A DNA stretch of 64,000 nt from Escherichia phage GEP001. Location: the sequence record PV173775. One strand, given 5' to 3'. Below the pieces are notes generated by a model. It worked only from the letters and a program-made list of their open reading frames with translations, searched no databases and had not been told where the DNA came from. Position numbers and translations under genes: made by a program. Positions 11,653 through 14,322 of this stretch are shown in pieces (position 1 is the first letter of the stretch; the number at the start of each line of letters is the position of its first letter).

Positions 11653-12681
11653 ATGTCATCAATACCTTGGATTGATAATGAGTTTGCATATCGTGCATTA
11701 GCTCATTTACCTAAATTTACACAAGTAAATAATAGTTCAACTTTTAAATTGCGGTTTAGATGCCCTGTTTGTGGAGATTCAAAAACCGACCAAAATAAAG
11801 CTCGTGGATGGTATTATGGCGATAATAATGAAGGAAATATTCATTGTTATAACTGTAACTATCATGCACCAATCGGAATATATTTAAAGGAGTTTGAACC
11901 CGATTTATATCGTGAGTATATCTTTGAAATAAGAAAAGAAAAAGGTAAAAGTCGTCCAGTAGAAAAACCTAAAGAACTTCCTAAACAACCTGAGAAGAAA
12001 ATAATTAAATCTCTTCCGTCATGTGTTAGATTAGATAAACTGGCGGAAGACCATCCAATTATAAAATATGTAAAAGCTCGCTGTATTCCAAAGGATAAAT
12101 GGAAATATCTTTGGTTTACATCTGAATGGCCTAAATTAGTTAATAGTATAGCACCAGGAACATATAAAAAGGAAATACCTGAGCCTCGTCTTGTTATTCC
12201 AATTTATAATGCTAATGGAAAAGCTGAGTCTTTTCAAGGACGTGCATTAAAGAAAGATGCTCCTCAAAAATATATCACCATCAAAGCTTATCCTGAGGCA
12301 ACAAAAATCTATGGTGTTGAACGAGTTAAAGATGGTGATGTATATGTTCTAGAAGGACCTATAGATTCACTTTTTATTGAAAATGGTATAGCTATTACAG
12401 GTGGTCAATTAGACCTAGAAATTGTTCCATTTAAAGATAGACGAGTATGGGTTTTGGATAATGAACCTCGTCATCCTGATACTATTAAACGAATGACTAA
12501 ATTAGTTGACGCAGGAGAAAGGATTATGTTTTGGGACAAATCTCCATGGAAATCAAAAGATGTTAATGATATGATTAGAAAGGAAGGTGCAACCCCTGAA
12601 CAAATTATGGAATATATGAAAAATAATATTGCGCAGGGGTTGATGGCTAAAATGCGGCTATCTAAATATGCTAAGATTTAA
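11653..12681 (+). CDS. 61: DNA primase gp61
   Basis: 342 aa; zinc ribbon CPVCGDS...HCYNCNYH; TOPRIM motif VLEGPIDSLF; recognised as T4 gp61. Confidence 0.95.
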   Translation: MSSIPWIDNEFAYRALAHLPKFTQVNNSSTFKLRFRCPVCGDSKTDQNKARGWYYGDNNEGNIHCYNCNYHAPIGIYLKEFEPDLYREYIFEIRKEKGKSRPVEKPKELPKQPEKKIIKSLPSCVRLDKLAEDHPIIKYVKARCIPKDKWKYLWFTSEWPKLVNSIAPGTYKKEIPEPRLVIPIYNANGKAESFQGRALKKDAPQKYITIKAYPEATKIYGVERVKDGDVYVLEGPIDSLFIENGIAITGGQLDLEIVPFKDRRVWVLDNEPRHPDTIKRMTKLVDAGERIMFWDKSPWKSKDVNDMIRKEGATPEQIMEYMKNNIAQGLMAKMRLSKYAKI

Positions 12682-12878
12682 ATTAACCCAACTAAAGCAA
12701 ATGCTAAATCTACGAATGTATCAAGAGTAATTACTGGAATACTAACGCCATGAGCAATAGCAACTGGCGATAAAACAAAATTCCAAAGTAAAATTCCTAT
12801 CATAGCAGAAATAGTAAAAGCTATACGTTTTTTATTACCTTTGATGGCATTAACAAGTGCCATTAATTTTTGTACCAT
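12678..12878 (-). CDS. antisense small membrane protein (66 aa)
   Basis: Strong Shine-Dalgarno AAGGAGG 7 nt upstream of ATG on the minus strand; two hydrophobic segments; the only convincing minus-strand gene in the early region. Confidence 0.55.
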   Translation of the reverse strand: MVQKLMALVNAIKGNKKRIAFTISAMIGILLWNFVLSPVAIAHGVSIPVITLDTFVDLAFALVGLI

Positions 12879-12927
12879 GTGTCGTCCTCCTTTAAATTAA
12901 ATATTTATCGCAAATTTTACAAAATTT

Positions 12928-12957
12928 GTTTACTTTCTCAGCTTGTTGTGGTATTAT
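12928..12957 (+). promoter_or_regulatory. early promoter (GTTTAC, 18 bp, TATTAT)
   Basis: gtttactttctcagcttgttgtggtattat, upstream of the 186-aa ORF. Confidence 0.55.
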
Positions 12958-12982
12958 AAAATAAACTGCTGAGGATAATATA

Positions 12983-13543
12983 ATGATTAATAAAATTGTG
13001 CATGAAATGGCTTTAAACGGAGATTCATATAAAATATCTGCCGTAGTTGAGAATTTCATACTTAATAAAGTAAAAGAGTATTTCACTGATTGTTCAGTTA
13101 GTTATCAAGAAAAAATGGTTTTAACTGACGATACTGAAAAATCAAATAATTTGTTTTGTTCGAATTTTACAACTAAGAAGCGTACTAGAAGATTTGATAT
13201 TGTTATTTCTCGCAACGGTAAAAAGCATATAATTGAAATCAAACATCAAGTTGGTGGAGGTACAGCTATTGATTCTGTTGGAATATATTTAGAAGATAAA
13301 GATAAATTAAAAGAATACACAAAAACTGAAAATCCTGTGTCATTGATGATATTAGATTTTTTGCCATGCGGATATTATCCGCGTAATAAGTGGACAAAAA
13401 GAGAATCATTTACTGATAATCCAACCATCCAAGCAAGGTTTAATGAATATGCTAAATCACAAAACGTGTTAGTATTACTATCAAATAAATATGATGAAGA
13501 ATTATATAATTCGTTTTTTGCTGCAATAAATGAGAGAATATAA
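12983..13543 (+). CDS. hypothetical protein with PD-(D/E)xK-like motif (candidate nuclease), translationally coupled to dam
   Basis: 186 aa; motif [20 protein letters not shown] (D, then E-x-K 14 residues later); stop overlaps dam ATG (TAATG). Confidence 0.6.
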
Positions 13544-14322
13544 TGCTAGGAGCTATTGCGTATACAGGTAATAAACAATCATTATTACCTGAACTTAAGT
13601 CTCACTTTCCAAAATATGACAGATTCGTGGATTTATTTTGCGGAGGTTTATCAGTATCTTTGAATGTCGATGGTCCTGTATTGGCTAATGATATTCAAGA
13701 ACCAATTATTGAAATGTATAAACGTCTTATTAGCGTGTCATGGGATGACGTTTTAAAAGTAATAAAGCAATACAAATTATCAAAAACATCAAAAGAAGAG
13801 TTTTTGAAATTACGCGAAGATTATAATAAAACTAGAGATCCTCTTTTGCTTTATGTTCTTCATTTTCATGGGTTTAGTAATATGATTCGCATAAATGACA
13901 AAGGAAATTTTACTACTCCATTTGGAAAAAGAACCATAAACAAAAATAGTGAAAAACGCTTTAATCACTTTAAACAAAATTGCGATAAAATAATTTTTAG
14001 CTCATTGCATTTTAAAGACGTCAAAATTCTAGATGGCGATTTTGTATATGTTGATCCTCCATATCTCATAACAGTTGCCGATTATAATAAATTTTGGTCA
14101 GAAGACGAAGAAAAAGACCTTTTAAATCTTTTAGACTCTTTAAATGATAGAGGAATAAAATTTGGACTGTCGAATGTTTTAGAGCATCACGGAAAGGAAA
14201 ACACTCTTCTTAAAGAATGGTCTAAAAAATATAATGTTAAGCATCTTAATAAAAAATACGTCTTTAACATATATCATTCCAAAGAAAAGAACGGAACTGA
14301 CGAAGTATATATTTTTAATTAA
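13543..14322 (+). CDS. dam: Dam DNA adenine (GATC) methyltransferase
   Basis: 259 aa; DPPY catalytic motif and FCGG AdoMet motif; length matches T4 Dam. Confidence 0.9.

Follow-up and report, generated by a model that had tools for sequence, protein, structure and literature searches.

In the genome of Escherichia phage GEP001 (sequence record PV173775), the gene for the DNA adenine methyltransferase Dam is directly preceded by a plus-strand open reading frame (ORF) of 186 amino acids (aa), here given the working name X. The stretch that was analysed, referred to as the window, comprises 64,000 nucleotides (nt) of a Tequatrovirus (T4-like) genome, and its plus strand is the direction of early transcription. 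The order of genes around the locus is gene 61 primase, a 66-aa ORF on the minus strand (identified below as dam.1), X, dam, gene 56, and soc. With moderate confidence, X and dam can be proposed to form a compact two-gene cassette of the restriction-modification type, in which X would be a minimal PD-(D/E)xK endonuclease of the DpnII/MboI type that cuts unmethylated GATC or a related site. X and the 66-aa ORF are both genuine genes, though not parts of a single module.

The linkage between X and dam is tight and extends to distant relatives. In the window, the TAA stop codon of X and the ATG of dam at 13543 overlap by one base (TAATG), and the product of dam is near-identical to T4 Dam. Directly downstream of X there is a gene for a D12 methylase in 7/7 contexts, with stop and start codons that abut or overlap by 0-35 nt. 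These contexts are the window, four further T4-like contigs or contig groups, and Klebsiella phage KPV15, and they represent at least three genome positions. In KPV15, which is a member of Jiaodavirus, the X-dam pair sits between denB and ndd. A 756-aa ORF comes after dam in contig L006, and its N-terminus may resemble T4 rIIA. A nuclease gene that adjoins a methyltransferase gene across relatives is the arrangement found in type II restriction-modification systems. An earlier reading of the window, made from the sequence only, had compared the coupling of X to Dam with such a system; this idea has held up, in that the coupling is conserved, it resembles a restriction-modification cassette, and the nearest sequence family is that of the GATC enzyme DpnII. 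One T4-like metagenomic contig carries an additional 93-aa ORF between dam.1 and X (L004 4010-4291).

Are the two genes always found together? The distributions of X and dam were compared through record counts per set and per genus. The gene 61-dam.1 flank occurs in 503 phage records, dam in 183, and X (any match) in 163; full-length X of the Tequatrovirus type is present in about 155 records, and the T4-type deletion junction, or scar, in 33. By these counts, X and dam occur together in about 155 records, and in about 30, those of T4 and its kin, dam stands beside the scar of X. In this comparison of record counts, no case of X without dam was seen among the phage records, and X counts are equal to or lower than dam counts in each of the Shigella, Yersinia, Salmonella, and Serratia phage sets. 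Intact X has been kept in about five in six of the Tequatrovirus records that carry dam, and ~320 relatives carry neither gene. For example, gene 61, the small antisense gene, and gene 56 are contiguous in Mosigvirus JK42, Gaprivervirus VR26, and Tequatrovirus RB3, and both X and dam are absent there. By the counts, loss is asymmetric in the manner of type II restriction-modification systems: the methylase may occur alone and the nuclease does not. A methylase without its nuclease (and with a scar), the reverse not being seen, together with the ~320 relatives that have neither, is what one would predict for a cassette of the restriction-modification type.

The loss of X can be followed in the classical T-even phages. 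In T4, 549 bp of the region have been removed and the last ~20 codons of X remain. The X allele of T2 (L025 1201-1746) has lost 1 nt, with the result that LLQ takes the place of the last 8 residues and the protein is 181 aa long, and the remnant in T4 (L002 3140-3202) bears the same 1-nt frameshift. The shared frameshift suggests that the decay of X began in a common ancestor allele of the T2/T4 type. The sequence-only reading could match neither ORF to a characterised T4 gene; X is indeed deleted in T4, whereas the 66-aa ORF already bears the name dam.1 in T4T and RB3.

What kind of protein is X? The AlphaFold2 model of X (predicted local distance difference test score, pLDDT, 78.7; predicted template modelling score, pTM, 0.79) has the alpha-beta-beta-beta-alpha-beta core of the PD-(D/E)xK superfamily. 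In the model, helix 15-33 contains E23, strand 67-77 contains D72, and strand 80-88 contains E85-I-K87. In this predicted structure, an acidic residue is found on strand 2, (D/E)xK on strand 3, and a glutamate on the first core helix, as in the superfamily. A Foldseek search of the PDB with the model returned PD-(D/E)xK nucleases exclusively. On the strength of the model, membership of the superfamily is firm, and assignment to the restriction-enzyme subclass is suggested.

The residues that have been conserved in the family are consistent with this fold. Nine X sequences, which diverge down to 29% identity, have E23, V39, Q42, S54, R69, D72, I73, I75, and H82 as invariant positions, and the same is true of E85, K87, H88, Q89, G93-T-A-I-D-S98, L109, P118, S120, and D125. 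The view of the 186-aa ORF as nuclease-like, put forward in the sequence-only reading, is borne out by the agreement between the predicted fold and the invariant E...D...ExK motif. The D...ExK motif described there is present but needs correction, since the aspartate is D72 and not D71, and 12 and not 14 residues separate it from E85. Kinship with EcoRI was considered as well, because ExKHQ and GTAIDS in X recall EAKHQ and GNAIER. It was rejected: alignment of the profiles with hhalign gave an expectation value (E) of 0.27 with an EcoRI sequence verified against the PDB, and a Pfam scan of X gave no match to the EcoRI family.

The similarity of X to DpnII is weak but reproducible at the level of sequence. 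PF04556 (DpnII) is the top Pfam family for X from the window (E 0.002, 17.9 bits) and for 4/9 X members, always in the same register, with residues ~11-112 of the protein matching positions 143-235 of the 278 in the profile. The type II restriction endonuclease model of PADLOC also matches X (E 5e-6). A direct comparison of the families started from the Streptococcus pneumoniae DpnII sequence, which was verified; it is a full-length PF04556 protein (335.7 bits) and 99% identical to a database protein. The DpnII alignment consisted of 18 sequences, and both it and the X alignment are low in diversity. With these low-diversity alignments, hhalign gave a score of 33.7, an E of 3.8e-4, and a probability of 36% over 91 columns. 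The alignment pairs E23 of X with E152 of DpnII, RFD72 with RFD201, and E85 with E214. In 300 shuffled controls, half of them column-shuffled and half block-shuffled (150 each), the highest score was 26.8, which is below the real score of 33.7. In the AlphaFold2 model of DpnII, moreover, the order of helices and strands in residues 124-288 equals that of the entire X. Canonical DpnII itself adjoins a D12 methylase of the DpnM type, and this methylase is 28% identical to the Dam of GEP001. In our reading, X is distantly related to the catalytic domain of DpnII and represents a minimal form of it; by score threshold as well as by architecture, X does not qualify as a formal member of the family.

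X belongs to a small family. A word-indexed search of 5.8 billion proteins found ~10 relatives, and exhaustive profile searching with HMMER gave 12 matches to the family among 1.84 billion representatives. Wider homologue searches added only two members, P0011 and P0013, both of them distant. All identifiable contexts of X are T4-like phages or T4-like contigs (two contexts, L005 and L007, are too short for classification). Sequence searches for solved relatives of X found none, a plasmid search found no homologue, an NCBIfam scan gave no match, and the sole match of X in the BFVD viral structure library is a family member from phage MX01. PHROGs lists the families of X and dam.1 without an assigned function for either, and literature searches turned up no publication on gene X. 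The gene evolves under strong purifying selection: compared with phage Lutter, X has 13 synonymous and 3 non-synonymous changes, and the ratio of non-synonymous to synonymous substitution rates (dN/dS) is 0.05.

How might the cassette work? X and dam would be co-expressed early from their own promoter and translationally coupled, with the nuclease first. X would be equivalent to the catalytic, C-terminal domain found in enzymes of the DpnII/MboI type, minus their N-terminal helical domain of ~120 residues. Early in infection, it would cut cytosine-containing DNA with unmethylated GATC or a closely related site; DNA of co-infecting phages, plasmid DNA, and host DNA with too little methylation are candidate targets. 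The DNA of the phage would be shielded by Dam methylation and by glucosylation of its hydroxymethylcytosine. The cassette would be dispensable and would be gained and lost as a unit in T4-like genomes, although the nuclease may go while the methylase stays. In this scheme, we infer the catalytic activity of X, its GATC specificity, its sensitivity to methylation, and its targets.

Several observations count against this scheme. The best X member scores 22.5 bits against PF04556, for which the cut-off is 23, and thus falls below the Pfam gathering threshold; the hhalign probability is likewise just 36%. X has no counterpart of the N-terminal helical region of DpnII (residues 1-123) and does not have the full-length PF04556 architecture of ~280 aa. 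The lysine is placed differently, as ExK in X and as ExN...SK in DpnII, and the invariant GTAIDS loop is modelled at a pLDDT below 50. Although all Foldseek matches are PD-(D/E)xK nucleases, the best of them are non-restriction nucleases such as VC1899, Card1/Can2, and Bax1, and the search does not point to type II restriction enzymes in particular. The C-terminal frameshift in T2 and the loss in T4 show that X is dispensable. In enterobacterial hosts, the GATC sites are methylated by the cell itself, and the DNA of T-even phages carries glucosyl groups, which leaves no obvious abundant substrate for a methylation-sensitive GATC enzyme. A nuclease gene ahead of the methylase in one operon is also unusual for the safe establishment of a restriction-modification system. 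Finally, DpnII was sought beside the nearest plasmid relatives of this Dam and was not the partner there; five of the six plasmids pair the methylase with a type IIS enzyme of the AlwI or FokI type, and the sixth has no annotated neighbouring enzyme.

Some of these points would be accommodated if X had descended from a restriction enzyme but now acted as a non-specific, nicking, or structure-specific nuclease in recombination, repair, or the breakdown of host DNA, and stood beside dam through ancestry and operon structure. This alternative is unlikely. It would fit with X spanning just residues 124-288 of DpnII, with the non-restriction nucleases among its best structural matches, and with its dispensability in T4 and T2. 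However, the linkage to dam has survived divergence to 29-63% protein identity as well as relocation in the genome, which inheritance alone would not maintain, and X was never observed without dam.

Could X instead be a homing-type endonuclease? In mixed infections, such an enzyme would cut cassette-free genomes near the point where dam.1 meets gene 56, repair would copy the cassette in, and Dam would protect the site in the carrier. The 1.43-kb cassette is present or absent between conserved neighbours in genomes that are ~95% identical, as expected of a homing endonuclease, and it sits at different positions in different genera. T-even genomes are also rich in free-standing homing endonucleases, and segF, mobE, and segG are annotated in relatives. 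However, homing endonucleases of the T4 type are GIY-YIG or HNH proteins that are not known to have a fixed partner gene, whereas the partner of X is always the same. No target site was identified, and the scar in T4 represents loss by deletion and not a clean empty site. We regard homing as improbable.

A mark-and-destroy mechanism is more improbable still. Dam would methylate cytosine-containing DNA and X would cut methylated GATC, with the result that host DNA is destroyed and glucosylated phage DNA is spared. Dam-methylated host DNA would then be an abundant substrate, and the co-expression of X and dam from a single early promoter would be explained; by contrast, the sole family similarity of X is to DpnII.

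If X and Dam do constitute a restriction-modification cassette, a further step would be to regard the pair as a weapon with which X cuts GATC sites in the DNA of rival phages or plasmids that have no Dam protection, possibly including the hydroxymethylcytosine DNA of cassette-free T-evens. We consider this extension doubtful. If true, it would explain why some T-evens carry Dam, and what T4 retains as its 'orphan' Dam would be the surviving immunity component of a restriction system that it has lost.

Among the 4-mers, GATC shows by far the strongest depletion in the window, with 66 sites observed and 226 expected (observed/expected ratio 0.29). This depletion was considered as a footprint of X and was ruled out by RB3 (L024), which has no cassette and is equally depleted (31 versus 30 sites over 29 kb of aligned DNA). 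Similarly, the short loci of Mosigvirus JK42 (L021) and Gaprivervirus VR26 (L020) contain 1 and 0 GATC sites, compared to about 13 and 16 expected. The depletion of GATC is a general trait of Tevenvirinae and is unconnected with X-dam.

What is the small gene on the opposite strand? By sequence and position the 66-aa ORF is dam.1: it matches PHROG 2024 (E 1.9e-30), is 92% identical to the T4 copy, and is convergent with the 3' end of gene 61. It is named as such in T4T and RB3, and in the T4 reference NC_000866 the gene is intact yet unannotated. Homologues in other genera are found at ~50% and ~20% identity, and in its own frame dam.1 has a dN/dS of 0.15. The protein has a charged N-terminus and is hydrophobic from about residue 19 to the end, a profile compatible with two membrane segments. 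There are two subfamilies, in which W32, N33, P38, G44, and P48 are invariant. Gaprivervirus VR26 carries tandem dam.1 paralogues, one from each subfamily, that are ~20% identical (L020 2495-2901). A strong ribosome-binding site recurs upstream of dam.1 homologues, and the motif NATAAATA is found 24-31 nt upstream of the ATG in 6/8 homologous loci (these come from three named genera, plus one T4-like contig that is unplaced). The core of T4 late promoters is TATAAATA, and the NATAAATA motif agrees with it. From these sequence features, dam.1 most likely encodes a separate, conserved small inner-membrane protein that is late-transcribed.

The sequence-only reading had suggested that the antisense membrane ORF might be a third component beside the nuclease and the methylase. 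This is contradicted by its distribution: dam.1 was found in 692 phage records, compared to 163 for X and 183 for dam, and Mosigvirus, Gaprivervirus, and Tequatrovirus RB3 carry it at a locus that has neither X nor dam. Because dam.1 occurs in genera that have neither gene, it is not a third component. A three-component system of dam.1, X, and dam can be dismissed as extremely improbable, given that it is suggested by adjacency in this window alone, that dam.1 is missing beside X-dam in KPV15, and that it is encoded on the other strand and has a promoter motif of the late type.

The features of the locus are collected in Table 1. Re-reading of the sequence confirmed the ORF coordinates, the AAGGAGG site, and the stop/start overlap that had been reported from the sequence only. 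The early promoter that had been assigned to X stands in part: a promoter-like site is present, but the consensus on its own does no better than in shuffled sequence, since 14 such sites were found in the AT-rich stretch and 12.6 were expected. As promoter-like sites are no commoner than in shuffles, the promoter call for X-dam rests on position and on the annotation in Lutter. Compared with RB3, the cassette is a clean block of 1.43 kb.

Table 1. Coordinates of the features at the X-dam locus in the window.
Feature	Position	Strand	Remarks
Gene 61 primase	11653-12681	+	
dam.1, gene for a 66-aa small hydrophobic protein	12678..12878	-	Convergent with gene 61, 4-nt overlap with gene 61 stop; outside the cassette
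Ribosome-binding site of dam.1, AAGGAGG	12886-12892	-	
Late-promoter-like GATAAATA upstream of dam.1	12902-12909	-	Motif recurrence; 8-bp promoter annotated at the equivalent place in Lutter
X-dam cassette, extent relative to cassette-free Tequatrovirus RB3	12889..14323	+	RB3 aligns to 12500-12888 and resumes at 14324
Segment deleted in phage T4, 549 bp	12915..13463	+	CAAA microhomology at junction; takes out the X promoter and codons 1-160
Early-promoter-like site for X-dam, GTTTAC/TTTACT-17-TATTAT, TG before TATTAT	12928..12957	+	Consensus match; equivalent annotated in phage Lutter
Ribosome-binding site of X, GAGGA	12971-12975	+	
X, 186-aa PD-(D/E)xK nuclease-like ORF	12983..13543	+	Putative active site E23, D72, E85, K87; invariant loop H88-Q89...G93-T-A-I-D-S98
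dam, D12-class N6-adenine DNA methyltransferase	13543..14322	+	Pfam D12 MTase PF02086, E 1e-50

Two other elements were noted in this interval. A terminator-like hairpin with a T run is located at 12841-12866 on the plus strand, ~160 nt 3' of the gene 61 stop and within the 5' part of the dam.1 coding sequence, which is antisense to it; it may terminate the gene 61 transcript or merely reflect coding constraints. A 64-aa ORF on the minus strand (12892-13086), which starts with GTG and overlaps the 5' end of X together with the promoter, is taken as spurious; its PHROG match is marginal (E 0.019).

The neighbourhood differs from that of T4 in several respects. Where T4 has one gene (61.2), the window has two adjacent paralogous ORFs on the plus strand, at 10494-11126 (210 aa) and 11128-11484 (118 aa). 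The two share 35% identity in their C-terminal part, terminate alike in SIDDQIFNAFMN(K/R)G, and fall into PHROGs 3781 and 4122. In T4 and VR26, the homing endonuclease gene segF lies between gene 56 and soc; in the window (14901-14984), as in RB3, JK42, and Lutter, it is missing. The ORF that follows gene 42 (5152-6000, plus strand) encodes a beta-glucosyl-HMC-alpha-glucosyltransferase (HMC, hydroxymethylcytosine; PHROG 842, E 2e-89). This enzyme is characteristic of DNA glucosylation of the T2/T6 type, as opposed to the beta-glucosyltransferase of T4.

T-even Dam has been studied for decades, and the model phage T4 is a deletion derivative at precisely this locus. If X is active, Dam would provide the protection in a restriction system carried by a phage, lytic phages with hydroxymethylcytosine DNA would be added to the short list of viruses known to have one, and research would gain a DpnII-like enzyme of very small size. 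If X is inactive or otherwise employed, its strict linkage to Dam would still need explaining. Full-length X is available in many isolated phages, and classical T2 offers an allele with an altered C-terminus.

How does the proposed cassette compare with known systems? Chloroviruses carry pairs of nucleases and methylases that are used against host DNA, for example CviAI, which recognises GATC and is blocked by adenine methylation. X-dam differs from chlorovirus restriction-modification in that no sequence or fold link was found in BFVD and that the hosts here already methylate GATC. Type IIP enzymes of the MunI/EcoRI class are structural neighbours of X but share only 12% sequence identity with it.

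The closest parallel is provided by the DpnII/MboI systems. Their partner methylase belongs to the same Pfam family (D12) and is 28% identical to the Dam of GEP001. The E...RFD...E nuclease core of X aligns with residues 124-226 of DpnII, and the order of secondary structure is the same across all of X. By contrast, X has 186 aa compared to 288 aa in DpnII, the nuclease gene precedes that of the methylase, there is no second methylase of the DpnA type, and X was found only in lytic T4-like phages. The recognition sequence of T4 Dam is GATC (PMC12707154), as it is for the partner methylases of DpnII and MboI. The in vivo function of T4 Dam is still considered unclear in a 2025 review (PMC12707154). 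The 'orphan' Dam of T4 is the product of the same methylase gene that in GEP001 is the downstream partner of X; it is an orphan in T4 because the region of X has been removed there by the 549-bp deletion.

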